A DNA stretch of 64,000 nucleotides. It comes from Mobula hypostoma. Lineage: Eukaryota. Numbering within the stretch: the stretch's first letter is position 1; each line of letters starts with the position of its first letter. Location of the stretch: positions 120,778,001 through 120,842,000 of the forward strand of contig NC_086097.1 in NCBI RefSeq assembly GCF_963921235.1, read 5' to 3'. The position numbers were made by a program, and so were the translations under genes. Under the pieces are notes generated by a model. That model worked only from the letters and a program-made list of their open reading frames with translations. It had not been told where the DNA came from and made no database searches. Below are positions 3,486 to 56,659 of this stretch, piece by piece.

Positions 3486-4280
3486 TGGAAGCATTTGGCT
3501 GTCATTAATTATATGGCAATACATTGAATCAACTTTAATTTGGATTATAAATATAAAGTTTAGCTTTATCTGTCACAGGTATGTTGAAACATATATTAAA
3601 ACAAATTGCTGTGTCACCATACTTCCAGCACAAACATAGCATGCACACAGCTCAGTAACCCTAACCCATAAGTGGGAGGAAACCAGAGTATCCGGAGGAA
3701 ATGCACATGGTCACCTGGAGAACGTACAAACTCATTACAGGACAGCAGCAATAAATGACCCCGAATGCTGAACACTCACTGTAAAATTGTGTTCTAACTG
3801 CTACACTCCTTTGCACTCCTAACTAATTGAATGGAAGCACTTGGTTATCATTAATTATATAGCAATATGTTCCACCAACATTAAATTAGTTTATAAAGAT
3901 AATGATTAACTTCATTTGTCATATGTACATTGAAACATACTGCTAAATGTGTTGACGAAGGGTCTCGGCCTGAAACATCGACTGCACCTCTTCCTACAGA
4001 TGCTGCTTGGCCTGCTGCGTTCACCAGCAACTTTGATGTGTGTTGCTAAATGTGTTGTTTGCATCAAGCGTGTGAAGAGGGCTTCCGGCAAGTGTCGCCA
4101 TGCTTCCTGCTCCAACATAGCATGCCCACAGCTTACTGTATGTCTTTGGAATGTGGGAGGAAACTGGAGCACACTGGGAAACTCATGTGGTCATTGGGAG
4201 AATGTACAACCTCCTTACAGACAGCAGCGGGAATTGAATCTCGATCTTACGCTAACCACTATGTTACTGTGCTGCCATTA
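3486..4280 (-). mobile_element. Two reverse-oriented V-domain SINE copies within an old tandem duplication
   Basis: Both units begin ATGGAAGCAYTTGG..TCATTAATTATAT.GCAATA (3486 and 3831), each followed by a reversed SINE containing GTGGGAGGAAAC..GAG.. Confidence 0.7.
3953..4046 (+). mobile_element. Solo Penelope-like terminal repeat with hammerhead-like core
   Basis: TGACGA-A-GGGTCTCGGCCT-GAAAC-ATC-GACTG...TGTGTGTTGCT, flanked by duplicated TGCTAAATGTGTTG (3941-3954, 4044-4057). Same sequence as the terminus of the Penelope element at 33465. Confidence 0.8.
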
Positions 4281-4542: not shown

Positions 4543-4680
4543 AACAGTGCTGATGAAGGGTCTCTGCCCGAAATGTGGACTGTTTATTCCCTTCCATGGA
4601 TGCTGCCTGGCCTGCTAATTTCCTCCAACATTTTGTGTGTTACTCCGGATTTCCAACATCTGCATAATCTCTTGTGTTTG
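4543..4680 (+). mobile_element. Solo Penelope-like terminal repeat with hammerhead-like core
   Basis: AACAGTG-CTGATGA-A-GGGTCTCTGCCC-GAAAT-GTG-GACTGTT followed by GATGCTGCCTGGCCTGCT..CTCCAACATTTTGTGTGTT. Confidence 0.8.
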
Positions 4681-5371
4681 TGTTAATAACCATATTGTCC
4701 TTGATATCTGTTCTGTATCACCTTTCCATACAGAATTTTATAACATTACAAAGAATTATTCTATCTTAGTATCAGTCCTGCTGGTCATTCGACTCCCCTT
4801 CACCTGTAATGGGTCAGCATTTACCCTTTATCTTTCACGAATAGTCAGCTCTCGATCTCTACTGCTGACACTTCACTGGATACCAGGGCACTGTTATTTG
4901 CAAGACTGGCAATCCAACAGAATGGGAAGCTGTCTTTCCAAAAAAGCCTCCTGGCACATGTTACTGTGTAATTACGCTCAATCATTCTTCAGGCTCTAGA
5001 GGTACTGTGCCTCCTTTGTTATTGTTCCTTATGAACCACCGTTGTAATATTCTAGTAATACATGAGAACACTTTATTAAATTAGCTCTGGGCACCTCCAA
5101 GGCCAGAAACTAATCTGACTGGAAGCTCTGATATTGCACACTTACTATGTTCAGCAAACTTAAGCACTGAAGAATAGGCTGGGTGATGCCTGCTAATTGA
5201 CTTTCTTCATGTGTCAATATATTACTGAGTCCCTGCATCTGAAACTTGTTTTCTTTTTATTTCTGTGAATTCCTGATGATGTTTTAAAAAACAACACTCG
5301 GAATTAGGTAAGCTGACTGAAGTATACCTCAAGATCCATCCTTTTGTTTGACATCTTAAGTGATCATTATA

Positions 5372-5742: not shown

Positions 5743-6091
5743 AAAGTATATACGATCTTAAGTATTAAAACTAATTATTTCTCACTTTGTATCTCTATAA
5801 ATGCTTCTTTATCTGCACCCTCTGTTGCTTCATTTTCTAAGTGTGTATGTGTATTTTCTTCACATCTATGGCTGATATATTGAGGGTAAATTTTGCCTTT
5901 TAGGTCATGGCTAACCATAAGTGATAGTGAATTAGCTTCCTGATGCAAACAGTACCTGGTTTCATTATAGGTCGGAGTGTCAAAGAGCACTACAACACAG
6001 AAACAGGCCCTTCAGACCATCTAGTCTGTGATGAACTATTATTCTGTATAGTCCCATCGATACACACCTGGACCATATCCTTTCATACATG

Positions 6092-6395
6092 TAACACACA
6101 CAAACCACTGGAGCAACTCAGCAAGTCAGGCAGCAGCAATGGAGATAAAGAGTCAACACTTCAGGCTGAATCCCTTCATTAGGACTGAAAAGGAAAGGGG
6201 GAAAAGCCAGAATTTAGAAGGTGGGGGGAGGGGAAGGAGTGCAAGCTGGCAGGTGGTAGGTGAGACCAGGTGAAGGGGAAGGGAGATGAAGTGAGAAGCT
6301 GGGTGGTGATAGTTGGAAAAAGTAAAGTGCTGAAGAAGAAGGAATCTGATAAGAGAGTAGAGTGGACCATGAGGGAAAGAGAACAAGCAAGGGCA
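6092..6395 (-). mobile_element. Penelope-like 3' region with terminal repeat (mutated hammerhead core)
   Basis: Collinear with 33465-33780. The core reads CAGTC-CTAATGA-AGGGATTCAGCCT-GAAGT-GTT-GACT on the minus strand. Confidence 0.75.
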
Positions 6396-6659
6396 TCAGA
6401 AGCAGGTTATAGCATTCGCCGAATCTCTTGTGTTATTATACTAAACAAAATTTCCCTGAAATATTAAAATTGAATCCACTTTCTTCATTTCAGCAGGCAG
6501 CTCATTATGCAGTGGGACTTTACGTAAGCTCCTATGTGCAGTAAGGAATTATAACATGCTATCATCCATTTTCTGTCACTGCAAGTTGGATTTCTACCCA
6601 TGAATGATGAAGGACAGCTCTGAAAGAGTTTTGCTTTATTGCACTCATTGACTTTCACA

Positions 6660-17890: not shown

Positions 17891-18202
17891 TTTAAAGAGC
17901 TTATGTGGCTCCCCACATGTGGGCCACTTACTCCCTTTTTTAACCGTAAAAACGACAGCAACCCATGCTTACACAGGGCCACTGTGAAAATGATTGCTCC
18001 ACATGACCTCAACTTCTCTTTATTAGCTGCTGTTAATTAGCTTACTCGTAAATCTAATATTAACTAATAAGTTGCAAGCATGGCACTATTAGAGACCTGT
18101 CAAGTAAAGCTCACCAGCCTGAGGCCTACCTTTTTTAAACTCTCACACCTAATGCTCTAAGGGTTAATGTTCACACTTATTTGTAATTTCCTGCATGCAG
18201 GA

Positions 18203-18335
18203 CATCCTGATGAAGAGTTTTGGCCCGTAACATTGACTGTTTACTCCTTTCCATAGATGCTACCTGGCCTGCTGAGTTCCTCCAGCATTTTGTATACATT
18301 GCTTGGATTTCCAGCATCTGCAGATTTTCTTGTGT
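18203..18335 (+). mobile_element. Solo Penelope-like terminal repeat (mutated hammerhead core)
   Basis: CTGATGA-AGAGTTTTGGCCC-GTAAC-ATT-GACTG plus the conserved downstream block. Confidence 0.75.
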
Positions 18336-20140: not shown

Positions 20141-20574
20141 TTTGCCATTTGAAGAAGAGAACTAATCCAATTAACCGATGAATAAACTCTTCTTGGGCTT
20201 CCAGCCAGGTCCAGGTACTGATCATAACTGACGTTTTAATGACAAACTCTGCTATCCTCACCAGGGACCCTTTTTCAATCAACTGATGTTCTCCTGACTG
20301 AATCAATGAGAGTATTAGTGTGTACGAAGAAAGGCGAAACATCATTTAGAAGTCGGTGTAGAAGCTCACTAAATGCTGTTTTTTTATGTGAAAATCTAAA
20401 AACAGGAAATTCTGGAAATTTGAAATGCATAGAAACACAGATTGCTAGAAACATTCAACAGGTCAGGCTACATCTGCAGAAGAAAAAACCCCTTAATGAT
20501 TCTGATCAAATGCCAATTGTCAGAACAACAATAAAAGAATGAGACATGAAGGGGCGTTAAATTAGTCCCAAAGA

Positions 20575-21915: not shown

Positions 21916-23585
21916 GGTGGCCTATCTTTAACTGGGAATAAAAGATCTGTTTGGGGAGATATGAGTTAGGCAGCTAGATGACATGATCTATCCATCGGAG
22001 TTGGTGTTTATCTTGGTGGAGATGCTACTCATGTTGTCCTCCTCCAGTGCACTGGTGTTTGTGTGTCTGTCCTTCCAGATGATCCTCAAAATCTTTGATA
22101 AGGATCTTTGGTGATATTGTTCCAGGGCTTTCAGTTGCGTACTGTAGGTGGTCCTGATTCAGCTCCATACTGTAATGTAGGTAGGGTGACTGCTCTACAA
22201 AGCAGAAGATTTGTTTGGACTGGTAGGTCACAATCTCCAAAGACTCCTTTCTTTAATCTTGCATAGCCTCCACCAGCACAACTCAGTCGGTGGTTGATTT
22301 CTGAGTTGATGTTTGTTTTGAGCAGAAATGGGAAGGTCTTTGACTTTCCCAAGGTCAGGAAAGTAGTCTATATTTTCAGGTGTGATATCATCAACTCTTA
22401 TGGAGGGCTGGATAAATGAATTGAATTGAATTGACTTTATTATTTAGAACCTTTATCTACATGAGCAGTAAAAAAATTTGTGTTATGTCTCTGTCTAAAT
22501 GCACAATGTGCAATTTACAGTAATTTATATTGGACAATCAATATAACATAGAAATACGATTGTGTCAGCGTGAACTAAGCAGTCTGATGGCCTGGTGGAA
22601 AAGCTGTCCTGAAGACTGTTGGTCCTAGCTTTTATGCTGTGGTACCATTTCCAGATGGTAACAGCTGGAACAGCTCATGGTTTGGGTGACTCGCGTGCCC
22701 AATGATCCTTTGGACCTTTTTATACACCTGTCTTTGTAAATATCCTAAAAAGTGAAAAGATCACATCTACAGATGCAGTGGCCTGTCTGCACCACTCTCT
22801 GTAGAGTCCTGCAATTGAGGGAAGTACAGTTCCCATTACAGGTAGTGATGCAGCCAGTCAGGATGCTCTCAGTTTTGTCCCTACAGAAAGTTCTTAGGAT
22901 TTGGGGGCCCATACCAAACTTCTTCAACCGTCTAAAGTGAAAGAGGTGCTGTTGTGCCTTTTTCACCAAACAGCTGGTATGCAGAGACCACATGAGATCC
23001 TGAATGATGTTTATGCCAAGGAACTTAAAGCTGTTCACCCTCTCAACCACAGATCCATTGATGTCAATAGGGGCTAGCCTGTCTCCATTTCTCCTGTAGT
23101 CCACAACCAGCTCCTTTGTTCTTGCAACATTGAAGGAGAGGTTGTTTTCTTGACACCACTGTGTCAGGGTGATGACTTTTTCTCTGTAGGCTGCCTCATT
23201 ATTATTTGATATTAGGCCAATCAGTGTAGTGTCATCAGCAAATTTAATTAGCAGATTGGAGTAGTGGGTGGTGACTCAGTCATGGGTATACAGAGAGTAA
23301 AAGAGGGGGGCTTAGTACACAGCCCTGAGGGACTGGTTGAGCAGTGACTGATATAGGATTTGTGTATTTTTTAATATTCAAAACAAGTTCCATGGCCCTA
23401 AAATGCCTTGGTATACACTGGAGGTCTTCTTTAGAGCATGCTACAATGGTGCTGACATCCGCATACTAAGGCTCCATGATATTGGTGATACTGACCTTGT
23501 TTTTGGCCTTGAACCAGTTGACGTTGAAAAACCTGTTATCCATTTTATGCACAATTGTGATCCCTGGAGTAGCCCTTGGCCAATG
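21915..23585 (-). mobile_element. RTE LINE, 3' segment, interrupted by a Rex1 insertion
   Basis: NRFFNVNWFKAKNKVSITNIMEP*YADV, INSEINHRLSCAGGGYARLKK, RAVTLPTLQYGAES, HQLRWIDHVI*LPNSYLPKQIFYSQL. Confidence 0.8.
22415..23335 (-). mobile_element. Rex1/Babar LINE RT to 3' end, nested in RTE
   Basis: LIKFADDTTLIGLI, VERVNSFKFLGINI, VKKAQQHLFHFRRLKKFG, ESILTGCIT, and a (CAATT)n tail. Confidence 0.85.
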
Positions 23586-24928: not shown

Positions 24929-27900
24929 TGTCATGGCTTAAACTGGGTTGGTTTGTCCAAAAAGGATCTGTCAGACTTGCACAGGCAGGGACCTCCCAGT
25001 CTCCGCCCAGCTAACACGAGTCACCCGCCACTCATTTCCAACACATCAACTGCAGCCTATTTAAACCCAGTTCGTATCCACCATCCTTGTTCCCTCAACA
25101 AGTTGCTCCTAGATGTCAGTTACATTGGTACCCTGTTGTGCACAGGGTTGCTGCTCCCTGCACCAGTCAACCCCTGGATTCCAGTGTCTGAATGCTTTTA
25201 CGAATCTCCAATCTGATGCCATAACTCCCTGTCCCAATGCATCTTACAATTTGAGCTCCAGCCATCTCTATATGTCACAGGCCGAGCCTATCTCTCACCC
25301 CTTCTGCATCACAGCCATTGACGGTGATCCCTTGGGATCTGGAATAGTCAGAGCACGCACACAGCCTGTGCACGTGAGCATCTGAGAACACTAAGAGTCA
25401 ATCCAAGACGTCCTGATTGACTCAGACAACACTCCTCTCATTTTGGGTTCCTCCTGGCTCTCCACCCACAATCCTCACTTTGCCTAGACATCCAGTTCAC
25501 TGCTGAGTTGGCGACTCACCTGCTGGATCATCTGCCTTCAACCTCAGCTGATTTCAACCTGTAAATCCCTGGAGACGATGGAAGCCCTTGACTTCACCAA
25601 ACTCCTAATGGAGTACCACATCTTAGCCATTGCCTTCAGTTAAAAGGAAGCCAGCGTCCTTCTATCTCACAGACCATATGACTGCACAATTGGCCTCCTC
25701 CCGGGCATCACCCCTCCCCAAGGTCATTTTCTTCCTCTCCTCTCTGGACACCCAAACCATGAATGACAACAGCACAGTTTCATTTGACCATCCCAGTAAC
25801 AGCCAGTACAGGATTATTCTTTGTCAAATATAAAGATGGCGGTCTTTGTCCCTGTGTTGATTATCATGGACTTAACAAAATCACCATTAAGAACCACTAA
25901 CATCTTCCCTTGACCGATAACACATTAGAAACACTCCGTAGGGTGCAGATCTTCACCAAACTGGATTTGCGAAGAGTGTATAATCTGATTTGCATCCACC
26001 AGGGGGATGAGTGGAAGAGGATGTTCATAAAGCAACATGGCCTCTGTGAGGACATGGTAATGCCTTTCAAACTTACCAACAGTCTGGTTATTCTCCAAGC
26101 CTTCAATAACAAGTTCCCCTAAGACATGCTACACAGGTATCCATTTGTCTACCTCAGTGACATCCTCATCTTCTCCAAGGATGCCCAAGACCAACTATAT
26201 TCATTCCTCCAGGTTCTCGTTGAAAACCAACTCTACAAGTTAAAAAAATTCCATTTCCACACCCCAGTCATTTCTTTCCTGGGTTCTGCCCTTTCACTCC
26301 AAGGCATAACCATGGACCTAGAAAAAGTGAGTGCCATCATTGAATGGACCTGACCTCACTTCCTCAAATAGTTACAGCGTTTGGGCTTCTCCAACTTCTA
26401 CCTTGTTCATTAGAGACGACAGCTCCTCACAACTCCCTCACCAGACTACCTACCTCACGAATAACCATGACAGACCATGCTTTCAAAGAGCTCAGGAGGT
26501 GCTTCATTACCACTGCCATTCTCCACCATCCGAACCCCTCTAGACCTTTTGTGGTACAGATGGATGCAACTGATGTGGGTGTCAAAGCCATCCTTCCCCA
26601 GCGAGGAACAGATGGGAAGATACAACCTTGTGCCTTCTTCAAGGACATTTAACTCTGCACATTATAGAGTAGTAGAAAAGGAGCTACTCACCATCAAATG
26701 GCCTTTGGATGAATGGAAACATTGACTGATAGGAAATACCAAGCACTCCTTGATCTAGACTGACCACCAGAACTTCGTATCCATTCAGCAGACCAACTGA
26801 CTCAACCCACATCAGACTTGCTGGGCCCTCTCCTTCGAACAGTTCAATTTCACCATCTCCTTCCGACCTAGGTCCAAGAGCACAAAGGTGAACACCCTGT
26901 CATGATAGCTTGACCCAGAAGAAATAGAGATCGACCCTCAGATCATCATTCCCTCCTCCCCAATCCTTGCTCCAGTCATCTGGGACCTCAGAAGCAGATC
27001 CGCCAAGGCCCAAAACATAACACTGGTCTGGCCAACACACCTAACAACTAACATGGCAGCCATGCGATCTGAGGCGCTCCAGTGGGCCCATTCTACACCC
27101 CTGTCTGGCCATCCAGGCACATGACAGACTCTAGATTTTCTGTGACACCAATTCTGGTGGCTCACCATGATCACAGATCATCAATTCGTCACTGCCTGCT
27201 CTCAATGTGCTGAGTTCAATTCATCCAAACAGCACCCCTCTGGGCTCCCTTGACATCCGAGGACACACATCACCATGGATATCATCATGGGTGTGTCACA
27301 TTCCAGTGGGGCCGTGGTGATCATGGGATTGGTGGACCAGCCCTCCAAGGCAGCCCACTTCATTACGCTCTCCTCACTTCCATCAGCCGATGAGACAGTG
27401 GACCTGGTACTTCAACACATAGTTCGCCTCCACGTCTCCCCTCAGAACCATGTGTCAGATCAGGGTCCACAATTCATCTCTGGCTTCTGGAGACTCTTCT
27501 GCTCCCTCCTCTGCACCTCAGTGAGTCTGCCCTCTGGATTTCATCTGCAGACCAACAGACAGTCAGGGAGCGCCAGTCAGCAAGTGGAGAAATTCCTGCA
27601 ATGTTTTGCCACCTCCAATCCTTCCACACAGAAGATGTATCTGCTCTGGGTCAAGCAGTCCTACAAACTATGCACCTCCTCTTCCATGGGTATGTCACCC
27701 TTTGAAGTGCTTCATGGCTACCAACCGCTGCTGATCCACGTGAAGGAGGTAACAGTAGAAGTCCCATCCACCAGGGCCCTGGTTCATCGCTGCTGGAATA
27801 CTTGGAAGAGGGCATGAAATGCCATCCTAGAAGAGGGCACAAAATGCCATCCTAGCTGCCAACCACGCCTACTTCTGCCAGACCTACTGCCGGCAGTGCC

Positions 27901-30505: not shown

Positions 30506-33464
30506 TTATAAAAGGTTTGTATTCTTCTATACTTTGCCTGTTCAAGTGCCTATCAAAGTGACTCCTGAACATAGTGCTTGTATTGGACTCTCCCACCTTC
30601 TAAGTACATATAGAAGAAAAAATAACTTTTCCCTCAAAATGTCTTCTCACTTTAAACTATATTCTCCTGTTTTTGATACTTCCAACTTCCATTTCAGCTG
30701 GCTGCAATCAGTGTGAGATAAAGAGCTTTGTTGCTTTCCAGACTTTTTGGTAGGCTTCAATCAAAACGAAAGGTTGTTCGCTGATGACACAATGTGAGGT
30801 TTAAAAAGGACTCAGGTGCTTTCAGGACTTTTCAGCAGCTGCAATTAGCTCGAGAAGGTGTTTATTGGCGATGCAGGGCAAAGTTTAAAAAGACTTTGGG
30901 TGCTTTTGGGACTTTTTGACAGGCTGCAAACATAACAATCTACTGGGCACTCAGCAGGGGCCAATAAAAAGAAATGAGGTGTAGGCAGAGTGGCCATTGT
31001 GTGAATGGACAGTATCAGAGTGGTCTGGGTTTTGCTCAATGGGCTTAGGGTAGAACAGGCTTGGACAAGCATAGACAGAGGTTCTAATAAGTTTCCGGTA
31101 GGCTTACTTCTTCTGTTAGTACAGAGTTAGCGTTATGTTTCTTGTGTGAGATCTTGGAACTTTGGATGACCTCCAGTCTCCTTGATAAGAACACTGCCAT
31201 GAAGAACACCACGTGGCAGATCCTTGGAGTCCATGTTAAGGAACTAGAGCTAGAACTGGCTGACCTTTGGCTCATAAGGAAGAATGAGGAGGTGATAGAC
31301 AGGAGCTACAGGGCAGTAGTCATCCCTATGTTGCAGGAGGCAGGTACCTGGATGACCTTCAGGAGAGGGAAAGGGAAGAGGCAGTCAGCGCAGAGCACCC
31401 CTGTGGCTGCCCTCCTCAACAGTAAGTATATCACTTTGGATAGTGTTGGGGGGAACACAGTGTCGGGGCAAGCCGCACTGACCTGATCTCTAGCACTGAG
31501 TCTATCTCTGCAGCTCAGAAGGGAAGGGGGTGAAGAAGAGGAGAGCATTAATGATAAGGGATTCCATAGTTAGAGAACCAGACAGCAGATTCTGTGGACA
31601 TGAAAGAGGCACCTGGATGGCATGTTGCCTCCCAGGTGCCAGGGTCAGGGGTGACTCAGATCGGCACCACAGCATTCTAAAGGGGGAGGGTGAAATACAG
31701 GAGGTTGTGGTACATATTGACACATGTACCAATGACATATGTAGGAAAAGGAAGGGGGGCCTGAAGAGGAATTTAGGCAGCTAGTAGAAAGCTGAGTAGT
31801 AATCTCTGGATTGGCGCCTACAAGATGAATTTATGTAGGGAGCAGGGTTTCAGATTTCTGGATCATTGGAGTCTCTTCTGGGGAAGGTTTGACCTTTACA
31901 AAAACAATGGGTTACACTTGAACCCGAGGGGGGACCAATAACCTTGCGGGCAGACTTGCTAATGCTGTTGGGGTGAGTTTATACTAATTCAGCAGGGGAA
32001 TGGGAACCAGACTGAAAGGGCTGAGGATGGGGCAGTTTATTTACAAGTAGATGCAGTTTGTAGTGAGATAGTGAGGAAGGACAGGTGATGGTAAGGCAAA
32101 ATTGCAGTCAGTGGAATAAGGTAATGTTTAATATGAGGCCAAAATCAGAAAGGGTGATGAATACAGGACTGAAGGTGTTATATCTGAATGCACGCAGTAT
32201 ACGGAATAAGATAAATGATCTTGTAGCCCCATATTGAGATTGGCTGCTACGATGCTGTGGGCATCACTGAGTTGTAGCTGAACGAAGATCATAGTTGTGA
32301 GCTTGACATTCAAGGATACACAATTTATCAAAAGGACAGGCAGGTAGGCAGAGGGGATGGGATGGCTCTGTTGGTAGAAAATGAAATTAAATACTTAGAA
32401 AGAGGTGACATAGAATCGAAAGATGTAAAATCCTGTGGCTGTAGTTAAGAAACTGCAAGCATAAAAAGACTTTATAGTAGTTATATACAGACCACTGAAC
32501 AGTAGCCAGGACTTGGGCTACAAATTACAATGGGAGATCGAAAAGGCAATGAAAGGGCAATGTTGCAATAGTTATGGGAGATTTCAATATGCAGGTAGAT
32601 TGGGATAATCAGGCTGTAGCTGAGTCCCAAGAGAGGGAATTTGTAGAACGCCAACTCTTTAGATCAGCTTGTGGTTGAGCCCACTAGGGGAATTGCAATT
32701 CTGGATTTGGCATTATGTAATGACCAGAATTGATAAGGGAGCTTAAGGTAAAGGAACAGTGGCTGGAGTTTCCGAGAGTAATTTGGAAGGTGCAGGAAAG
32801 ATAGATCTCACAGATAAAGAGGCATTTTTTAGGGAGGATGAGGCAACTGTGGCTGACAAGGAAAGTCAAAGACAGCATTAAAGCAAAAGAGAGGGTATAT
32901 AATATAGCAAAAATTAATGGGAAGTTAGAAGATTAAGAAACTTTTAAAAACCAACAGAAAAAAACTAAAAAAGCCATAAAGAAAGAAAAGATGAAATTAT
33001 AAGGTAAGCTAGACAATAATGTAAACGAGGATGCAAAAAGATTTTTCTGATATTGAAAGAGTAAAAGGGAGATGAGAGTGGATATTGGACCGCTGGAAAA
33101 TGGCACAGGAGAGGTAGTAATGAAGGACAAAGAAATGGTGGCGAAACGTATTACGTAATTAGTGTCAGTCTTCATTGGGAAAGATACTAGCAGAATGCCG
33201 GAAATGCAGGAAGCAGAAGTAAGTGTAATTGCTATTACTAAGGTGAAGGTTCTTGGGAAAGAAAAAAATCTGAAGATAGATAAGACACCTGGACCAGTTA
33301 AACTACGCCCCAGGGTTCTGAAAGAGGTAGCTGAAGTGATTGTGGAGGCATCGGTAACGATCTTTCAAGAACCACTAGATTCTGGAATATTCCAGACGAC
33401 TGGAAAGTTGCAAATGTCACTCCCCTCTTTAAGTCAGGACAGAGGCAGAAGAAAGGAAATTATA

Positions 33465-34838
33465 AGCAACACACACAAAATTCTGGAGGAACTCAGCAGG
33501 TCAGGCAGCATCTGTGGAAAAGAGGAAACAGTCGATGTTTCGGGCAGAGACCCTTCATCAGGGCTGGGAAAAAAGATGAGAAGACAAAGTAAGAAGGTGG
33601 GAGGAGGAGAGGAAGAAATATAAGGTGCTAGGTGATAGGTGAAACTAGGAGAAGGGGAAGGGGTGAAGTAAAGACTTGGGGAGTTGTTGGGGCAAGGGAT
33701 AAAGGGCTGGAGAAGGACAAATATGATAGGAGAGGATAGAAGACAATGGAAGAAAGGGAAAGGGTAGGAGCACCAAGAGTTGCTGGGCAGGTAAGGAGTT
33801 AAGGTGAGAGGGAGAAACAGGAATGGGGAATGGTGAACGAGGGTTGGGGGTGGGGGAATCAATTACCAGAAGTTTGAGAAATGGATGCTCATGCCATCAG
33901 GTTGGAGGTTACCCAAACAGAAGATAAGGTGTTGTTCCTTCAACCTAAGTGTGGCCTCATCACAATAGTGGAGGAGGCCATTTATTGACGTATCAGACTA
34001 GGAATGGGAACTGGAATTAAAATGGGTGACCACTGGGAGATCCTGCTCCTTTCTCTGGCGGATGGAGCATAGGTGCTCAGTGAAGCGATCTCTCAATCTA
34101 GGTCGGGTCTCACCAATATACAAGAGGCCACAGTGGATGCACCAGATGCAGTAGGTGACCCCAGCAGACTCACAGGTGAAGTGTCACCTCACCTGGAAGG
34201 ACTGTTTGGGGCCCTGAACAGTAGTGAGGGAGGTGGTGTCGGGGCAGGTGTGGCATTTATTCTGCTTGCAAGGTTAAGTTCCAGGAGGGAGATTTGTGGG
34301 CAGGGATAAGTGGACAAGGAAGTCGCATAGGGAGTGATCCCTGCAGAAAGTGGAAAGTTGGGGGTGGGAAAGATGTGCTTGATGGTGGGATCCTGTTGGA
34401 CAATTATGTGCTGTATGTGAAGGCTAGTGGGTACCAAGTGAGGGCAAGAGGAACCCTATCCCTGGTGTTGCAGCAGAAGGATGGGGTGAGGGCAGATGTG
34501 CGCAAAATGAAAAAGACGTGGGTGAGGGCAGCATTGATGATGGGAGAAGGAAAGCCCTTTTCTTTAAAGGAGGATGTTTCATTAGTTCTGGAATGTCAAC
34601 CCTCATCCTCAGTGCAGATGCAGTGAAGACAGGGGAGCTAAAAGAAGAAGATGGCAATTTCACAAGTGACAGTGTGGGAAGAGATATAGTCCAGGTTGCT
34701 GTGAGAATCAGTGGGTTTATGAAAGATATCAGTAGATAGACTGTCTCCAGACATACAGATTGAGAGATTAAGAAAGGAGAGGGAGGTGTCAAAAATGGAT
34801 CAAGTAAATCTGAGGGCAGGGTAGAAGTTGGAGGCAAA
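33465..34838 (-). mobile_element. Penelope-like element, 5'-truncated (RT C-terminus, GIY-YIG, terminal repeat)
   Basis: Minus strand FASNFYPALRFT..SGDSLSTDIFHKPTDSH and VTYCIWCIHCGLLYIGETRPRLRDRFTEH. Inserted at the CR1 KGNY|RPV codons with approximate duplication GGAAATTATA / GGAAAATATA. Confidence 0.9.
33529..33566 (-). ncRNA. Minimal type I hammerhead ribozyme motif, best-preserved copy
   Basis: CAGCC-CTGATGA-A-GGGTCTCTGCCC-GAAAC-ATC-GACTG: stem I CAGcC/GACTG, core CUGAUGA/GAAA, stem II GGG/CCC, NUH site AUC. Stem III is mismatched by a probable CpG decay. Confidence 0.65.
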
Positions 34839-36907
34839 GGGAAAATATAGGCCAGTTGACCTGAGTTCAGTGGTTGGAAAGACGTTGGAGTCTATTATTA
34901 ACAATGAGATTTCAGGATACGTGGAGACATATGATAAAATAGGCCAAAGTCAGCATGGTTTTCTAAAGGGAAAATCTTGCATGACAAACCTGTTGAAATT
35001 CTTTTAGGGAGTAACACACAGGATAGTCAGAGGAGATAGGGAATGTTGTTTATTCGTACTTTCAGATGGCCTTTGACAGGGAGCCACACATGAGGCTGCT
35101 TAACAAGGTAAGAACCCATGGTATTACAGGAAAGGTACTAGCATGGATAGAAGATTGGCTGAGTGGCAGGGGGCAAAGAGTCGGATTAAAGGGAGCCTTT
35201 CTGATTGGCTGCCAGTGACCAGGGTTGTGCCGCAGCAGCCAGTGTTGGGGCCGCCTCTTTTCATGATATAGGTCAATGATTTCGATGAAGGAATTGATGG
35301 CTTTGTGACCAAGTTTGTGAAGGATGATGTTAAGATACGTGAAGGGGCAGGTAATATTAAGGAAACAGGGTGTCTGCAGAAGGACTTTGACAGATTGGGA
35401 GAATGGGCAAAGAACTGGCAAAACGATTATAGTGTAGGGAAATGCATTTTCATGCATTTTGGTAGAAGGAATAAAGGTGCGGACATTTTCTAAATTGGGA
35501 GGAATTTCAAAAAGGGATGTAGGATTCCTCATGCAGGATTCCCTAAAGGTTAACTTACAGTTTGAATTGGTGGTAAGGAAGGCAAATGCAATGTTAGGAT
35601 TCATTTTGAGAGAACTAAGATACTAAAGCAAGGACATAATGCTGAGGCTTTATAAGGCATTGGTCAGAACACACTTGGAATATTGTGAGCAGTTTTAGGC
35701 CGTTTATCTAAGAAAAGATATGCTGACATTGGAGAGGATTCAGAGGAGGTTCACGAGAATGATCCCAGGAATGGAAGGTTTAAAGTATAAGGAACGATAG
35801 ATGGCTCTGGGCTGTACTCACTGGAGTTTAAAAGAATGAGAGGGGATCTCATTGAGACTTATCGAATTTTGAAAGGCCTAAATACAGTGGAAGTGGAGAA
35901 GATGTTTCCTATAGTGGGGGAGTCTAGGATCAGAGGGTACAGCCTTAGAATAGAGGGAACTACACTTAGACCAGAGGTGAGGAAAAATTTATTTTGCCAG
36001 TGAGAGTTGAAATTGTGAAACTCATTACCATGTACGGCTGAGCAGGCCAAGTCATTGGGCATATTTAAGGCAGAGATTGGTAGGTTCAGGGTGTCAAAGT
36101 TGTGGGGAGAAGACAGGAGAATGAGGTTGAGAGGGATAATAAATCAGTCATGATGGAATGGCAGAACACACTTGATGGGCTGAGTGGCCTAATTCTGCTC
36201 CTATGTCTTATGGTTTAATGATCTTATCTGTAGGAAAAAGGTTCTGATTTACCTATGCCTATCATAATTTTATATACATCTATTAGGTTGTCCTGCCACC
36301 CCAGTTTCATGGCAAACCCAGCCTATTGATTCATTTCTAATAACTGCAGATGTCTGATCCAGACAACATCTTGCTGGATCTCCTCTGTACTCTCCAACAG
36401 GGTGCAGTGACCAAATCTGCATACAGTACTCCAAGGGCAGTCTAACTACTTTCCATAAAATTGCAACACGACTTTTATTTTCTGACCATTGTGATTCTAA
36501 TCATTTGGATTAAAGTTTGAGTAGTTCATTTGAATGTGGTTTTAAGTTCACTGCTCTTTGTGGTACTTGGCTGAACCAGCTTAGAGAAATATCCTTGTCC
36601 ATTATTCAAACAATCTGGAGTCATATCAGTGCTTATATTGGTATATGAACCATTTGAAGGTAATTTCCTCTTGAAGTACTTTGCTGTGTTAGCCCAAATC
36701 TACATTGACCTCATTGGTTTCATATACTTACATTCTTATATTCTGCCTGCTGTTGCTGTGGAAAGTTCTTCTTCTGTGAAAGATATCCTATTTTTGGACT
36801 ACCCTTGACTTACTATGTTGGCTTTAGACTTCCATGTTGTAGTTATGTTTCTATCTTTACTACACAATTCTCACCATAAAGTATGACATGGACAGGTTTA
36901 TTAAAGT

Positions 36908-37590: not shown

Positions 37591-37918
37591 TCCTTTCAAA
37601 TCCTTCGTCTCAGAGATAGCTAGGTTCTGGTGAGAGCCGATACAAATGTTGGGAGAATAAAAAGATTGGACTTGGTAAATATAAATTGTCAATAGTTCAC
37701 CTGGACAGGTTCTGTGATGTGTCTTTCCATGACCCTACAACTGTACCTCTCCTCCAATTCTAATATTTCAGAATTGAAATCATTCTGGAACATTTGCACT
37801 ACATTGGCACAATGAATCAAGTGAGATATCTTTAGTTTTTCACTGAACCGGAGGACTTGGTTTTATATTGTATGTCTCTGAAACATTCCATTCAATGGAA
37901 AAGCTCTTATATAGTATT

Positions 37919-38172
37919 AAACGCAAGAGATTCTGCAGGTGCTGGAAATCCAGAGCAAGACACACAAAATGCTGGAGCAACACCGTAAGCCAGGCAGTAT
38001 CTATGAAAGGGAATAAATAGTTGATGTTTCAGGGTGTGACACTTCATCAGGACTCATCTCCCTTTATTGGGATTCTGATGAAGAGTCTTGGCATGAAACA
38101 TTGACTATTATATTCTTCTCCATAGATGCTGCCTGACATGCTGAGATTCCCCAGCATTTTATCTGTGTTACT
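37919..38172. mobile_element. Head-to-head pair of Penelope terminal repeats
   Basis: Minus copy 37919-38055 (GAGTC-CTGATGA-AGTGTCACACCCT-GAAAC-ATC-AACT) and plus copy about 38070-38172 (CTGATGA-AGAGTCTTGGCAT-GAAAC-ATT-GACT). Confidence 0.75.
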
Positions 38173-38184
38173 CCTATATTTTTG

Positions 38185-38410
38185 TGTTGGCGCAAGGCCA
38201 AGTGGTTAAGGCATTCGTCTAGTGATCTGAAGGTTGCTAGTTCAAGCCTCAGCTGAGGCAACATGTTGAGTCCTTGAGCAAGGCACTTAACCACATTGCG
38301 GGCTGCTCAGTAAAATTCTCACTGATTTGATTTGATGCAAATAATGAAATTAACTGTATGTTTTGATATTTCAATGTATGTGACAAATAAAATTCATCTT
38401 TAAGGTCTTT
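38185..38410 (+). mobile_element. tRNA-headed SINE
   Basis: A-box-like GGCCAAGTGGTTAAGG and B-box-like AGTTCAAGCC. The tail CTCACTGATTTGATTTGATGCAA is shared with 275-290 and 52220. Confidence 0.65.
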
Positions 38411-38574
38411 ATCTTTAATGACTGCACTTTCCAACTCATTATATTAACAATTGTTGGTTACATTATGCACAACTATCCACTGGTTGCAAGACTTCACTCA
38501 AGAATTGTACTAGTCCTCACACAAAGTACACCAAGGAACTCTCATACTGTTCTTGAACAGAGTTTTACCAATAA

Positions 38575-39498
38575 TCTCTCCCTGTACGTTCCTGTACATG
38601 ATTCTAACTCCATAATCAAGTTCGCAGATGACACCATGGTGGTTGGCCTGATCAGAGGGGATGGCGAGACAGTCTACAGGGAAGAGGTCCAGCACCTGGC
38701 CGCGTGGTGTGCCGACAACAACCTGGACCTTAACACCCAGAAGACCAAGGAAATCATTGTGGACCCAGGCATGCTAGGAGCCACAGTCACGTCCCCATCT
38801 ACATCAACGGAGTTGTAGTGGAGCACGTATCAAGCTTCAAATTCCTTGGTGTCCACATTTCTGAGGATCTCACCCGGTCCCTGAACTCCTCCATCCTGGT
38901 CAAAAAGGCAACAGCGCCTTTATTTCCTGCGGAGCATGAAGAAAGCTCACCTCTGTCCCAGGACACTGATGAACTTTTACCGCTGTACCATTGAGAGCAT
39001 ACTCACCAACTGCGTCTCAGTGTGGTATGGCAATTGTCCCGTATCAGATCGCAAAGCACTCCAGCATGTGGTGAAAATTGCCCAGCGGATTATTGGCACC
39101 AAATTGCCTACCATTGAGAACATCTACCATAAATGCTGCCTGGGCAGGACGAAAAGCATTATCAAGGATGCATCTCACCTTAACCATGGACTTTTCACTC
39201 TCCTCCCATCCGGTAGGTGCTACAGGAGCCTCCGCTCCCGCACCAGCAGGCACAGGAAGAGCTTCTTCCCTGAGGCTGTGACCCTGCTGAACCTCACATC
39301 ACAGCGCTAAGCAGTATTGCATCCATATTGTACTGTCTCAGTACTTTCATATTTGTGTGCTGTAGCACTTACTTTTTATTCACAGTTATTTTGTAAATAA
39401 CACTATTCTTTGCATTTCTGGTTAGATGCTAACTGCATTTCATTGGCTTTGTATCTGTACTCGGCACAATGACAATAAAGTTGAATCTAATCTAATCT
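38575..39498 (+). mobile_element. Rex1/Babar LINE RT to 3' end, relatively well preserved
   Basis: IIKFADDTMVVGLI..WCADNNLDLNTQKTKEIIVD, FYRCTIESILTNCVSVWYGN, LLPSGRCYRSLRSRTSR, and an (AATCT)n tail. Confidence 0.9.
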
Positions 39499-39854
39499 TA
39501 TCCACACTTGCCAGGGCTCTCTAAAAGTCGGTTGCCTCTGTACTAAAGAATGCAGCCAATACCTCAAAATTTCAATGTGGTCAGGTTGCAAGCTTCACCT
39601 TTTTTTTCTGTACAGATCTTTTAACACTAGGCAGAGAACATTATAAAAGGACCCAGAACCTGAATATTGAAACAGCTACAAATAATGCTGTTTCCTCACT
39701 GCTCAGTGTACTTGACTGAATTAGAACTTATTTGCCTGAGATTTTTCAAATGTATCCTTAGCATTAGCAACACTTTTCACTGTAACAGACTTGGAAAAAT
39801 GTTCCCATCCATTTTATGTCTGAGTTCAAATATTTTTGACTATTCATAGCACCA

Positions 39855-40072
39855 AGGCAGCCCACATAAATAGGAACACGTCAGTAGATGGTTTCCTCTT
39901 GTGCCAAGATGCCACACTCAGGGTGGAGAAGCAACAACACCTTGCATGACATCTGGATTGCCTCCAAACTAAATGCATGCATTTTGATTTCTCCTTCCAG
40001 TATAAAAAATACCCCTCTTCCTCTATTCCCCACTCTGATTTTTTATCTCTTTTCACTGCCTATTACTTCCCC
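39855..40072 (+). mobile_element. Penelope-like GIY-YIG C-terminal fragment
   Basis: GCCACACTCAGGGTGGAGAAGCAACAACACCTT matches the reverse complement of 33900-33960. Confidence 0.6.
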
Positions 40073-42762: not shown

Positions 42763-43027
42763 TGTTGGTTTTGTGGAACGATCCATGTTCCAAACCTATT
42801 CTGGTATCTGTCCCCCACTTTTCCTTCGCTACATCGACGACTGCATTGGCGCTGCTTCCTGCACGCATGCTGAGCTCGTTGACTTCATTAACTTTGCCTC
42901 CAACTTTCACCCTGCCCTCAAGTTTACCTGGTCCATTTCTGACACCTCCCTCCCCTTTCTAGATCTTTCTGTCTCTATCTCTGGAGACAGCTTATCTACT
43001 GATGTCTACTATAAGCCTACGGACTCT
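42762..43027 (+). mobile_element. Internal Penelope RT fragment, stop-free
   Basis: LFLRYIDDCIG..FASNFHPALKFTWSISDTSLPFLDLSVSISGDSLSTDVYYKPTDS, homologous to 34700-34838. Confidence 0.9.
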
Positions 43028-43434
43028 AATAGCTGTATCCGTGGAAACACATTCTCTGATTTAAACGACTTATGCCAGCAGCAGTAATCATGAAATATAT
43101 GGCTAGGTACCAAGAAATGACGCAAAAGGCTAAATTACTGGTGGTAGTTCTGACCTGGCCTCCCTGAAGCACAAAATCTCTGGTGCTCTCTACACAATGG
43201 ATAGAAAAAGTTAAAAGCTTTGGCTCTGCATGTTGCCAATATATACTATACGTGGATATAGAAGTCTTATATGAAACAGCCTTTGGCTAGTTATCTGCAC
43301 TTGTTATCATCAAGCACCTTCTACAATATTTCTTCTACTCAGGCTCTGTTTTGAAGATGAAGTACAATGTGTAGATATAGTCAGCAGAAGCAACTGTGGT
43401 TGCAATTCCAGCATAGCTGTCAATCAAACACAGT

Positions 43435-48354: not shown

Positions 48355-48505
48355 TTTTGATTCTGGCTTCTTCTGCCTTTCTTTCCACTCTTGATAAAAG
48401 GTCTTGACCCAAAACTTCAAATGTTTATTCTTTTTCACAGACCTGCTGAGTCCGTTCAGCATTTTGTATGCGTGTTACTCTTGATTTACAGTATCTGCAG
48501 ATACT
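48355..48505 (+). mobile_element. Degenerate Penelope terminal repeat
   Basis: TTGATAAAAGGTCTTGACCCAAAAC..ACCTGCTGAGT..CAGCATTTTGT. Confidence 0.6.
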
Positions 48506-52627: not shown

Positions 52628-53484
52628 TGTGACGAGAATACACATAAAATTAAGATGTTTGCTGGCCTGGGTTAGCATCAGTGGCATCAGCAGTTGGTCT
52701 GCCACCTGCCCTCAGGGGAAGGAGAGATAAGGAACAATGGAGCAGCGTCTGGAGATGTGTAATGGAGGGACGTGGGAGAGAGAGCTGTCTGGAGCGGCTC
52801 CCCCTTTGAACCCTGAACTGTTTGAAGTGGTGGACAGGCGATGCCCCAGCAGGGGGATAAAAAGGGACCGGTTCGCTAAGGAGGACACACGCCGCCCGAG
52901 GTAACGAGACCCTGGAAGCGGTGCGCCTCTCACGAGTGGGTGAGAAGTACCAGACAACAGCCAGGGTGGAAAGGTAAGATCAGCGGGAACCCGGTGTGTG
53001 TCCGCCCTTGCCTGGGTGCCGGGTTCACTGCAGAGGATCGACCGCATCTGGAGGAGGGGTCACAGTCGGTGACCTCAGGTGACATCACCAAGGACCCGCC
53101 CAAAAGTTGCTTGTGAGCCATATCGCCGGTCGGTGAGTGAAGCCGCTCGGAATGATCAGTTGTTCCTGTTCTATCTCTCTCTTCCCCCACGTTGTCCATC
53201 ACCATGGCAACGATTACTGCGAACTGAACTACTAACTGGACTGAACTTTGAGTCACTTTGAAATTTGGTCATTTACCCCCAGACAACGATAGAGCTTGAT
53301 TGATGCTGTTATCTTAATTCTGCGCACATGTGTGTTTATCATCGCTGAACTGTTGCATTTATTATCCTTTCGATTACTGTTTTGCTTGTTTCTTTAATAA
53401 AACTTTCTTAGTTCTAGTACTCCAGACTCCAACTGAGTGATCCATTTCTGCTGGTTTGGCAACCCAGTTATGGGGTACGTAACA
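52628..53484 (+). repeat. 5' LTR
   Basis: TGTGACGAG...TACGTAACA with AATAAA at about 53396. About 17 substitutions versus the 3' LTR by manual count. Confidence 0.95.
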
Positions 53485-53488
53485 TAAG

Positions 53489-53509
53489 TGGGGTTCTCGT
53501 CCGCGATTT
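53489..53509 (+). promoter_or_regulatory. Primer-binding site, tRNA-Pro-like
   Basis: TGGGGTTCTCGTCCGCGATTT versus the tRNA-Pro 3' complement TGGGGGCTCGTCCGGGATTT; lies 4 nt after the LTR. Confidence 0.8.
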
Positions 53510-53583
53510 TGAATGCTAAATTTGGGACGGAGTAAATTGATTGGGTTAAAATTCCCGAAAGAAAGAAAAGACAAACAGCAGAA

Positions 53584-55701
53584 ATGGAGGCTGAGGAATT
53601 TATAAAGGCGCCGACCTTGGAGGCATTAGAGGATGCCAGGAAATCGGAATTGGTAGCTGTGGCCAAACGGTTGAATCTTGCTAAGGTGAAGTCGACAATG
53701 AGGAGAGAGGAGATACACAGAGCTATTGTAGAGCACTATGTATCTAAAGGTGTGTTTCCCCAAGGTGAGCTGGGGATGGTGTCTATTGAAAAACCTGCTG
53801 GAGACGCGGTACAGGTACAGCTTGAAAAACTGAGACTCGAGCACGAGTTCCGGGTACGACAGTTGGAAAGAGAAGAGAAAGAGAGAGAGAGACAGTTAGA
53901 GAGAGAAGAGAAAGAGAGGGACAGACAGTTGGAGAGAGAGGAGAAAGAGAGGCAATGGGAGCGAGAAGAGAGAGGGAAACAGAGGGAAAGGGAATTTGAG
54001 CTGGAGAAGTTAAAGATAAGGGCCGAGCAGGGGCTCGTGCCGAACCAAGGTGGAGGGTTCCGGGCGACCCAGGAGGTTAGGCTGGTTCCCCCATTTGACG
54101 ATACCGACGTGGATCGGTACTTCCTCCACTTCGAAAAAGTGGCTATAAGTCAGGAATGGCCGAGGGATAAGTGGGCTGTGTTACTTCAGAGTGTACTGAA
54201 AGGGAAAGCCCAACAAGCTTACTCCGCTTTATCCCCGGAAGATGCCCAGAAGTATGAGGTGGTGAAAGAGGCCATCTTCAGGATTTATGAGTTGGTCCCG
54301 GAGGCATATCGGCAGAGGTTCCGGAATGCGAGGAAGCAGTGGGACCGCACGTATTTGGAGTTTGCCCGTGAGATGCAGACATATTGTGAGCGTTGGTGCG
54401 CCTCGAAGGGGGTAGAGGGGGATTATGACAGACTGCTACAACTGATCCTGATTGAGCAGTTTAAAGGTTGTGTCCCTGATGGTATGAGACCCTACCTCGA
54501 TGAGAAAGAGGCAGCCACATTAACCGCAACTGCTAAGTTAGCGGATGAGTATGCGTTGACGCATAAAATGAAGTTTGCCCCGAGTAAAGGCTACCAGAAG
54601 GGTAGTCAGGACGGCAGGGAGAGTCCGCCGGAAAAGTCAGAAAGTAAGCCGGGGACTAGTGAAAAGGATAAGGTAGACCGGGAGCAGTCTAGTAGGAAGT
54701 CTCCTGGGGTCGTCTGTTATAATTGTGGGAAAGCCAGACACTTTGCGTCCAGGTGCTTTGCCCCAAAGAAGGAGACGGGAAAAGGAAAAACTGCGATTTT
54801 GACTGGCTGTATCGAGCTGTTAAGCGAACCGCTAGGGAAGGCCAGGTCTGAAAAAGTCCAGGAAGGGCATGAGAGGTTTATCTCGGCCGGATTGGTGTCA
54901 GTGAAGGAGGGGTTAAAACCAGTTCCAGTGCGGATCTGGAGAGACATGGGAGCGTGTCAGTCACTAATACTGAAAAGTGTATTAGAGTTTAGCTCAGAAA
55001 CCCAGACTGGGGAGGTCAAGGTCAAAGGTGTTGGGGAAGGGACAGAGTCAGTCCCTTTGCACCAGATACATTTACAAAGCAACCTGGTCTCTGGACTAGT
55101 CACGATCAGGGTGAGGTCCGAATTACCGATGAAAGACGTGGAAGTCTTGCTCGGTAATGACATCGCCGGGGGAATCGTGTTCCCAGTCGTGAGATTGACA
55201 GGTCAGCCTGCCAACAGTGAGGCCCCGCCCATGGACTCACAGGTTCATCATGGGGCTGCGGTAGTGAATTTAGCTGTGGTGGTAAATTTAGCTGAAACAT
55301 TTCTGCCAACCTTGTATGAGACAGGGTGTAGTGAGATAAGAGGTAGTGAGGGAGCTGGGACAGACGTAGCAGTAGCCAGGAAAGAATTTGTGCAGACGCA
55401 GGAGCGAGACGAGGGGCTGATGGTTTTTACAGAGACAGCTCTCTCTGACACAGCCTTGACAAGGGAACTAGTAGGCTATTGTGTAGCGGAGGAAGTGCTA
55501 AGGAAAAATGGGAAATCAAGTACAGTACCCACAGATGAGGAATGGGGGGTGGTGCAAAAGAGTTATGGGGATGAGGTTTTTAACATGGCCCACGAGGTAC
55601 CCCCCGGTGGACATTTTGCGGTGCTGGAGGAAACAGTTAGTGGAATCATGAAAGAGATTTACTGGCTGCCCAGGGGGAAAAATGTTATTGATCATGACTG
55701 A
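53584..55701 (+). CDS. gag: Gag (coiled coil, capsid/SCAN-like domain, CCHC knuckle) - aspartic protease - truncated integrase N-terminus, 705 aa
   Basis: VPPFDDTDVDRYFLHFEKVA..W; PEAYRQRFR..LILIEQF..LADEY (SCAN-like); CYNCGKARHFASRC; RDMGACQSLI..LLGND (protease); AHEVPPGGH (integrase zinc-binding His pair). Confidence 0.9.
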   Translation: MEAEEFIKAPTLEALEDARKSELVAVAKRLNLAKVKSTMRREEIHRAIVEHYVSKGVFPQGELGMVSIEKPAGDAVQVQLEKLRLEHEFRVRQLEREEKERERQLEREEKERDRQLEREEKERQWEREERGKQREREFELEKLKIRAEQGLVPNQGGGFRATQEVRLVPPFDDTDVDRYFLHFEKVAISQEWPRDKWAVLLQSVLKGKAQQAYSALSPEDAQKYEVVKEAIFRIYELVPEAYRQRFRNARKQWDRTYLEFAREMQTYCERWCASKGVEGDYDRLLQLILIEQFKGCVPDGMRPYLDEKEAATLTATAKLADEYALTHKMKFAPSKGYQKGSQDGRESPPEKSESKPGTSEKDKVDREQSSRKSPGVVCYNCGKARHFASRCFAPKKETGKGKTAILTGCIELLSEPLGKARSEKVQEGHERFISAGLVSVKEGLKPVPVRIWRDMGACQSLILKSVLEFSSETQTGEVKVKGVGEGTESVPLHQIHLQSNLVSGLVTIRVRSELPMKDVEVLLGNDIAGGIVFPVVRLTGQPANSEAPPMDSQVHHGAAVVNLAVVVNLAETFLPTLYETGCSEIRGSEGAGTDVAVARKEFVQTQERDEGLMVFTETALSDTALTRELVGYCVAEEVLRKNGKSSTVPTDEEWGVVQKSYGDEVFNMAHEVPPGGHFAVLEETVSGIMKEIYWLPRGKNVIDHD

Positions 55702-55719
55702 CGCGAACTGAGACGGTCA

Positions 55720-56486
55720 CCGACTTTTGATATGCTAACAAACCTAGTCGGTGTTAGCATGGAAATCAAAGAAGCTAGGGGCCCCCTGATAAGAGGAAAA
55801 AAACATTTTGAAAAGATTAGTATGGGATCGATCAGATGGGAGAAGGCTATGGTTTTGGCCAGGTCTACTGATAAGGTCTCTCCCTTAATCCCCGAACAAA
55901 GCGAATCTTTAGAAGTAATTAAACGACTCGCACCCGTATGTTTGATTGTCCCGAGGAAATGCAAAGAACTGGGACGTTGGGTGATGTCTGTTACAATAGG
56001 GCGGCCTAGTAAACAACACCCATATTTTTTGATTAATTCAGTGACTAAAGGGCTGATGAACACAGAGGTGTGTATGGCAATTTAATACGGCTGTCTGAAG
56101 CCAGCCTGATAGTGAACCTTGAAAAAAATGAATTCGGCCACACGAGGGTCACTTACCTGGGAATTGTGGTGACACAGGGGCAGCTGGCAGCGATGCAAGC
56201 TACAGTGCAGGCTATCGCTGACCTCCCAACCCCGACAGACAAGAGGGCTCTCAGAAGGCTCTTGGAGATGGTGGGGTACTGCAGGAAGTTTTGCAATAAC
56301 TCTGCGGTCAATACCCGTCCCCCGCCTACTAAGCCCTTGCGAGAGAAAACTGAGTCGGAATGGGACGACTCTTGTTATTGTGGTCCGGGAAAAAGCCAAA
56401 TGAGAGGTTACATTGATCGCAATTCATCAGTGTTTTTGGCCACTATGAAGTTTGCTGAGTTGGAGCCTGGTCTAAGGGATTATTAA
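55720..56486 (+). pseudogene. pol: Remnant pol (RT C-terminal/connection segment)
   Basis: LSEASLIVNLEKNEFGHTRVTYLG..PTPTDKRALRRLLEMVGYCRKF. No YxDD, integrase core or RNase H seen. Confidence 0.75.
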
Positions 56487-56647
56487 TAACACGTGTAAAA
56501 GGAACAGAAAATGTGATGACTGTCTGTCAAGGTGTTGACAGCTTCAAACTCGCTGTGTTAGCCAAATAGCTGATAAAGATGTACATTTGTGTATGTATCA
56601 AATAATGTATTCATGTTTGTAATTTTTACCTCCCGGTAAAAATTCTT

Positions 56648-56659
56648 AAAGGGGGGAAG
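56648..56659 (+). promoter_or_regulatory. Polypurine tract
   Basis: AAAGGGGGGAAG immediately before the 3' LTR. Confidence 0.9.

Follow-up and report, generated by a model that had tools for sequence, protein, structure and literature searches.

Dispersed and decayed minimal type I hammerhead motifs from Penelope-like terminal repeats of the ray Mobula hypostoma

Results

Eight copies of a hammerhead motif in 64 kb of ray DNA

In the window analysed here, a 64-kb stretch of Mobula hypostoma DNA, a minimal type I hammerhead motif of 38 nt occurs eight times. These motifs are very probably mutated copies of one carried at the 3'-terminal repeat of a Penelope-like element; they would have been inserted as passengers when uncleaved RNA was copied, and are likely inactive today. 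The initial annotation had listed eight dispersed copies, and all of them were found by BLASTN: the copy in the displayed piece (below, the flagged copy), used as a query, recovered the other seven at E 3e-26 to 7e-9. Three of the listed positions were exact, whereas five were off by 1–6 nt; the positions used here are given in Table 1. The eight copies are 78–91% identical to their own majority sequence. Their density, 8 per 64 kb, is high, and their spacing on the same strand ranges from 598 nt to 27 kb, i.e., they are dispersed and not tandem within the window. CpG dinucleotides in the window are at 0.29 of expectation. A profile built from the eight copies detected no further motif-bearing copy in the window, only a ninth, weaker piece. 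Of the two kinds of model search that had been proposed, a relaxed hammerhead descriptor supported the motif, with one site in the window (33561, minus strand) compared to a single site across 40 random sequences with the dinucleotide composition and length of the window (mean 0.025), but the Rfam hammerhead models did not, as they gave no match in the window up to E 5 or in positions 33480–33620 up to E 10.

Table 1. Coordinates of the motif copies and of the parts of the carrier element in the window
Feature	Positions	Strand	Remarks
Motif copies, plus strand	3947-3984, 4545-4582, 18202-18239, 38070-38107, 48386-48423	+	
Motif copies, minus strand	6150-6187, 33529-33566, 38018-38055	-	
Flagged motif	33529..33566	-	stem I 5' strand 33566-33562; core C3-A9 33561-33555; extra A 33554
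Flagged motif, continued		-	stem II 33553-33542; GAA 33541-33539; stem III 33538-33535 (ACAU)
Flagged motif, 3' part		-	H17 33534; predicted cut at the 33534/33533 junction; stem I 3' strand 33533-33529
Terminal repeat behind the flagged motif	33465..33528	-	pyrimidine tract, YAG, ATG, GT-rich end
Pyrimidine-rich 3' untranslated part	33567..33862	-	common to the 6086-6398 copy, 69% over 320 nt
Linker and GIY-YIG frame, broken	33866..34357	-	CX4CxxC, CCHH residues; three in-frame stops in 33866-34312
Reverse transcriptase end (thumb), broken	34342..34931	-	interrupted by two frame changes and by stops; truncated at the 5' side at ~34840-34930
Separate RT fragment, same family	42764..43033	+	YIDD motif; 93% to protein P0002 over 83 aa; no motif
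Short copy, ~100 nt	3947..4057	+	C3>U, disrupted stem I, ACAU
Short copy with full tail	4545..4682	+	core intact, AUGU stem III, H17=G, G2.1-G1.1 mismatch
Tailless copy, extended upstream by ~215 nt of the element	6086..6398	-	G5>A, A15.1>G
Short copy with full tail	18202..18335	+	A13>U, disrupted stems I and II, ACAU
Ninth, weak piece	20414..20484	-	profile match 20423-20484, minus strand, E 8e-4; sequence behind the motif only, hammerhead unreadable
Short copy with full tail	37915..38055	-	left arm of head-to-head pair
Short copy without tail	38070..38182	+	right arm of head-to-head pair, 14 nt from left motif
Old copy, ~35 nt of upstream sequence, partial tail	48355..48500	+	C3>U, G8>A, G12>A

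The carrier is a Penelope-like element

The initial annotation had assigned the hammerhead repeat to Penelope, and the arrangement around the flagged copy bears this out, as the motif lies behind a reverse transcriptase (RT) and GIY-YIG frame on the same strand, ~300 nt downstream of the latter. The RT-thumb and endonuclease pieces are collinear at 33869–34931, across two frame changes. Proteins P0002 and P0005 aligned with the RT-thumb stretch in tblastn at E 7e-103 and 6e-95, and the endonuclease frame, translated with X at its three stops, matched Pfam GIY-YIG with 25.3 bits at a cut-off of 22.6. Seven of 79 candidate proteins matched the element; six of these are from the rays Mobula and Hypanus (63–77% identity), and the seventh, from a frog, is 830 aa long and contains RVT_1 and GIY-YIG domains. 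The linker reads C-X4-C-XX-C, and there is a C-XX-C inside GIY-YIG with two His further downstream. The order of RT thumb, CX4CxxC linker and GIY-YIG thus identifies the flagged copy as a dead Penelope-like element of which the 3'-terminal 1.4 kb is present. In Neptune/Nematis-type elements, as described in the sections of PMC8557442 available to us, RT is followed by a CX2-5CxxC linker and then by GIY-YIG with CCHH, and the C-X4-C-XX-C linker and CCHH endonuclease therefore point to this type. To judge from its sequence, the carrier is a 5'-truncated Neptune-type Penelope-like element, with the clade taken from the linker motif rather than from a tree. A diverged second GIY-YIG end fragment was seen at 39836–40021 (plus strand, ~40% to P0002), with no readable hammerhead behind it.

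The window also contains other repeats. Direct repeats of 300 nt at 52628–56959, 97% identical and 4032 nt apart, enclose a 721-aa frame (53536–55701, plus strand) with SCAN and zinc-knuckle matches; this seems to be a young LTR retrotransposon, apparently without a pol region, which we take to be Gmr1-like. Two overlapping frames at 58513–60064 (minus strand) have no Pfam match, and by their motifs they presumably resemble a frameshifted hAT transposase. Other transposon relics, at 7791–8165 and 22748–23275 (minus strand) and at 27254–27814 and 38384–39307 (plus strand), include a Sleeping Beauty-type HTH, RVT_1 and ALKBH8_N (typical LINE ends), and an integrase core. At 11441–11725, a 41-nt unit recurs six times at a loose spacing of 43–58 nt.

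Consensus of the family and decay of the stem III palindrome

The column majority of the eight copies agreed with the consensus of the initial annotation at all columns except 11.1 (C in four copies, U in four) and 16.2 (A in five, G in two, U in one). The extra A between 9 and 10.1 is present in all eight copies and G10.1 in seven, and three single copies combine all 11 core bases with an H17 that is not G. Stem I has 5 bp in the family majority but is perfect in none of the eight copies. In the flagged copy, the core is intact (11/11 bases), stem I has a C2.2–A1.2 mismatch, and ACAU is not a palindrome. Stem III, which had been described as ACAT or ATGT, reads so in six copies (five and one, respectively), but it is GTGT in one and ACTT in another. 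At positions 15.2–16.2, the copies have CA (5), TG (2) or CT (1) and never CG, i.e., the intact ACGU palindrome is in none of them. Three other CpGs of the motif have decayed in the same way as the stem III CpG.

The shares of these variants in the whole family were estimated from contigs of 4 of 24 public runs, of which three are DNA runs from organisms A, B and F and the fourth, X22, is a presumed RNA run from organism A; the contigs were aligned to positions 33420–33659 at 80% likeness (96,129, 109,719, 111,698 and 12,885 contigs per run); the variant positions come from the best 40 of 71 rows, and some differences were left uncounted by the aligner. G16.2 was found in 23–36% and U15.2 in 5–13% of contig depth in all four runs, which places ACGU in ~14–29% of depth in each of them; this share is likely an underestimate. 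U2.2, which completes stem I as CAGUC/GACUG, was found in 90–98% of depth. The family therefore has both ACGU and a paired stem I. Together with the like decay of the other CpGs, these shares support an ACGT ancestor that has undergone CpG decay, as had been proposed, and the ACGU palindrome, which some members of the family have, most plausibly represents the ancestral state. Among the best 40 of 71 rows, no core position in 33548–33562 was variant.

The commonest contig state of stem III was ACAU (64–77% of depth), but this share is inflated, as the reference sequence itself is ACAU. When symmetric decay was simulated, in a way that imitates the aligner only, CA:UG ratios of 2–6 (seeds 11–15) and 2–29 (seed 17) were obtained, compared to the observed 5–13; in the simulation, reference bias would thus explain much of the ACAU excess. 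An ACAU master lineage, considered because of the skew in run X1 (ACAU 65%, AUGU 6%), was rejected, since simulated reference bias yields similar skews and the 5:2 ratio in the window rests on too few copies. The consensus rows of loose contig ends also lean to A16.2, with an agreement of only ~0.5. U11.1 was found in 24–37% of depth. The C11.1>U change (33541–33542, minus strand), which keeps a wobble pair, was about twice as frequent as G12>A in runs X1 and X5 (0.37 vs. 0.18–0.19), but not in X12 or X22, and simulated symmetric decay gave no such excess. Possibly, it marks a subfamily.

Predicted activity of the copies

The initial annotation had doubted that any copy is active at present, and our predictions agree with it. 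Each homodimer has two to eight predicted defects, and none of the eight copies and none of the 64 ordered copy pairs is free of them; according to this model, all window copies are likely inactive today. Folding of the majority sequence predicted a misfolded core with a probability of 0.97, in which G5–G8 is paired with 15.2–17, and the energy of the active dimer was −19.9 kcal/mol, compared to −33.7 kcal/mol for the best dimer, in a calculation that disregards tertiary contacts and proteins. As free RNA is predicted to trap its own core in this way, ancestral cleavage would probably need the help of a protein. A compensatory change was found at none of nine stem pairs in the eight decayed copies, although no covariation would be expected if they are neutral copies of a single master; 297 of 500 shuffles of these copies paired equally well, and RNAalifold run on the eight gave no consensus structure. 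Without covariation, and with pairing like that of shuffled copies, selection on structure within the family is unsupported. The ancestral motif was presumably catalytically active. By folding predictions, and by analogy with related motifs (PMC4209133), it would have cleaved weakly and only as a dimer paired through ACGU/ACGU; in the available part of that report, a minimal hammerhead ribozyme (min-HHR) of Schistosoma shows no cleavage as a monomer and low cleavage as a dimer.

Since ACAU is the exact reverse complement of AUGU, a pair of decayed copies, one of each kind, could restore stem III between them and might still cleave. The hybrid stem III would be fully paired, at −18.5 kcal/mol compared to −19.9 kcal/mol for the intact dimer, and the ACAU copy at 3947–3984 lies 598 nt from the AUGU copy at 4545–4582 on the same strand; the core of the latter, combined with the cleavage strand of the former, gives a whole core and a paired stem III with a single defect. 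However, this sole defect (G2.1–G1.1) affects the core-closing pair, not one of the 64 copy pairs is clean, and even intact minimal motifs cleave poorly according to the accessible text of PMC4209133. We consider such complementation extremely improbable, and inactivity of the present copies remains our preferred reading.

Ends of the insertions and the mode of copying

All eight copies run through the predicted cut and none begins at it, as if the cDNA had been copied from uncleaved RNA. Five copies start within ~5 nt of C3. At the 3' side, four copies end ~+65 to +70 past the cut, three at +100 to +102 and one in between; the flagged copy, which lacks the optional tail, ends ~69 nt past the predicted cut, and loose contig ends at 33464–33468 show that the family sequence continues beyond its end. 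The two classes of 3' ends are ~33 nt apart, matching the optional 30–40 bp tail of Penelope-like elements given in the consulted sections of PMC8557442. One inverted partner is present, in the head-to-head pair 38018–38055 (minus strand)/38070–38107 (plus strand). Both the optional tail and the inverted partner are published features of Penelope-like elements (PMC8557442; PMC4209133, in the parts available). The copies had been described as short solo insertions, which holds for five of the eight (100–140 nt), two of them making up one head-to-head unit, but not for the other three, in which the element extends upstream of the motif by ~35 nt, 215 nt and 1.4 kb. A 14-nt direct repeat (3941 and 4044) flanks the copy at 3947–4057; it is likely a target-site duplication and overlaps with the beginning of the core.

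Small size alone would also fit a non-autonomous retrozyme or SINE-like family derived from a small cleaved or circular RNA: the five pieces of only 100–140 nt share a similar start point, and tandem retrozymes of one chondrichthyan have been traced to Penelope terminal repeats (10.64898/2026.07.22.740005, in the accessible part). However, the window copies are dispersed, with same-strand spacing of 598 nt to 27 kb, 0/8 begin at the cut, and the short ones resemble the repeat of the ORF-bearing copy, with the same tail pattern, which makes this origin highly improbable.

The copying of uncleaved terminal-repeat RNA can be pictured as follows. A protein of the element would nick the DNA and prime cDNA inside the RNA at ~65–70 or 100–102 nt past the cut. 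With a start inside the RNA behind the cut, the terminal segment and the hammerhead would be reverse-transcribed first, and most insertions would end soon beyond the motif. The template would be uncleaved RNA, by analogy with the Anolis Poseidon element, which belongs to another clade (PMC11167929, in the sections available). The ancestral role of the hammerhead was likely the processing of tandem element transcripts, and it would have been dispensable for insertion.

The 5' ends at the edge of stem I may represent an RNA start, a splice acceptor or polymerase drop-off. In Drosophila virilis Penelope, an intron ends at helix I, according to the available text of PMC4209133. Two splice-acceptor-like arrangements were seen around the flagged motif: a pyrimidine tract with CAG that ends at the stem I 5' strand (33562–33590, minus strand), and a second tract (33510–33528, minus strand) with YAG and then ATG ~20 nt behind the motif, the YAG being present in 6/8 copies. 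The first core bases of the motif presumably fit the branch-point consensus. Opposite-strand joints ended at 33561–33564 in 6/6 cases among the best 15 of 349 rows, but they give only a hint, since the reference departs from the family exactly there. A spliced leader in the short copies was rejected, as the sequences that precede C3 have nothing in common. A coding frame that runs through the motif or begins at the ATG behind it was rejected as well: 45 candidates of 82–2000 aa gave no protein at E 1, and a stop in this frame was found in 59–72% of contig depth, although both observations are weak evidence either way.

Features of this kind could mean that the hammerhead shape gave no ribozyme service in this lineage and was kept for a promoter, a splice or branch signal, or protein binding. 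The lack of covariation (0/9 stem pairs) and the predicted misfolding of the core (0.97) would agree with that, as would the CAG-ended pyrimidine tract at stem I, the second tract with YAG 20 nt behind the motif, and the survival of this YAG through C/U exchange in the contigs; in the accessible part of PMC11167929, moreover, hammerhead mutants of the Anolis element inserted unimpaired in vitro. On the other hand, all features of the descriptor, including the extra base after A9 (8/8), G10.1 (7/8) and the palindrome, are found at the usual hammerhead site, and related motifs do cleave: weak cleavage is reported for dimers in PMC4209133, and cleavage in the presence of protein in PMC11167929. 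Hence, we regard a purely non-catalytic role as very unlikely, and favor descent from a ribozyme-bearing terminal repeat.

Discussion

Taken together, these results describe the hammerhead motifs of the window as relics of an abundant Penelope-like element. Very many insertions of the family record where cDNA synthesis started and stopped, so it is well suited for asking whether and when Penelope hammerheads cut in vivo, although the eight relics of the window do not settle this question. In a bolder scenario, in our view a long shot, CpG decay would have divided the family into complementary ACAU and AUGU half-ribozymes instead of silencing it; paired in this way, decayed copies within ray pre-mRNAs would still cut, helped by a protein of the element or by a chaperone of the host. 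The shared 5' edge of the mini-insertions would, in this scenario, be the true 5' end of the uncleaved RNA. If this were true, strong-stop-like mini-insertions, with a 5' edge at the start site or splice acceptor, would chart Penelope replication in vivo.

Degenerate motif scans of viral contigs and of metagenome contigs gave no match. We found no publication on the ray family in the literature on hammerheads or Penelope elements of cartilaginous fish, although preprint supplements and repeat libraries may contain it.

Several published systems resemble the ray family. The Neptune/Nematis elements of Craig et al. 2021 also show 5' truncation, an inverted 5' partner and a 30–40 bp tail in the consulted sections (PMC8557442), while the window holds only a broken 1.4-kb 3' part. 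Vertebrate non-LTR retrozymes likewise carry a type I hammerhead from Penelope terminal repeats, but in the available text they are defined by tandem units, unlike the dispersed window copies (10.64898/2026.07.22.740005).

Poseidon of Anolis carolinensis (Frangieh et al. 2024, PMC11167929) is similar in having a hammerhead in the terminal repeat and two classes of 3' ends past the cut. According to the sections of this paper that were accessible, its reverse transcription starts internally on the RNA, at two sites that lie past the hammerhead, its insertions derive from uncleaved RNA with no reads ending at the cut, and its hammerhead cleaves only with protein. By the linker motif, however, Poseidon belongs to another clade, and its end offsets are +85 to +92, compared to ~+70 and +101 here. 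Moreover, its ORF begins within the hammerhead, whereas no ORF start is linked to the motif in the window family.

The family also closely resembles the Penelope min-HHRs of Cervera and De la Pena 2014 (PMC4209133). Their descriptor, as given in the part of the paper available to us, comprises a CUGANGA core, an extra base, G10.1–C11.1, GAAA, a loop-less palindromic 15.2–16.2 and NUH, and the majority sequence of the ray family conforms to it. Location in the terminal repeat, dispersed single motifs of truncated elements and opposite-strand pairs are also shared. Thousands of dispersed single motifs, with A-Y-R-U variation, are reported there for coelacanth and Xenopus (Fig. S4), and the Acropora Neptune example (Fig. 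S3) has the same 4-bp stem II and C–G palindrome; cartilaginous fish were absent among the inspected rows of Fig. S3. The differences are that stem II of the window family, at 4 bp, is at the short end of the published range seen in that part, and that the density in the window is high (8 per 64 kb). Thus, the motif class itself is already published (PMC4209133, in the sections consulted), and the window copies extend it to a very abundant ray element.
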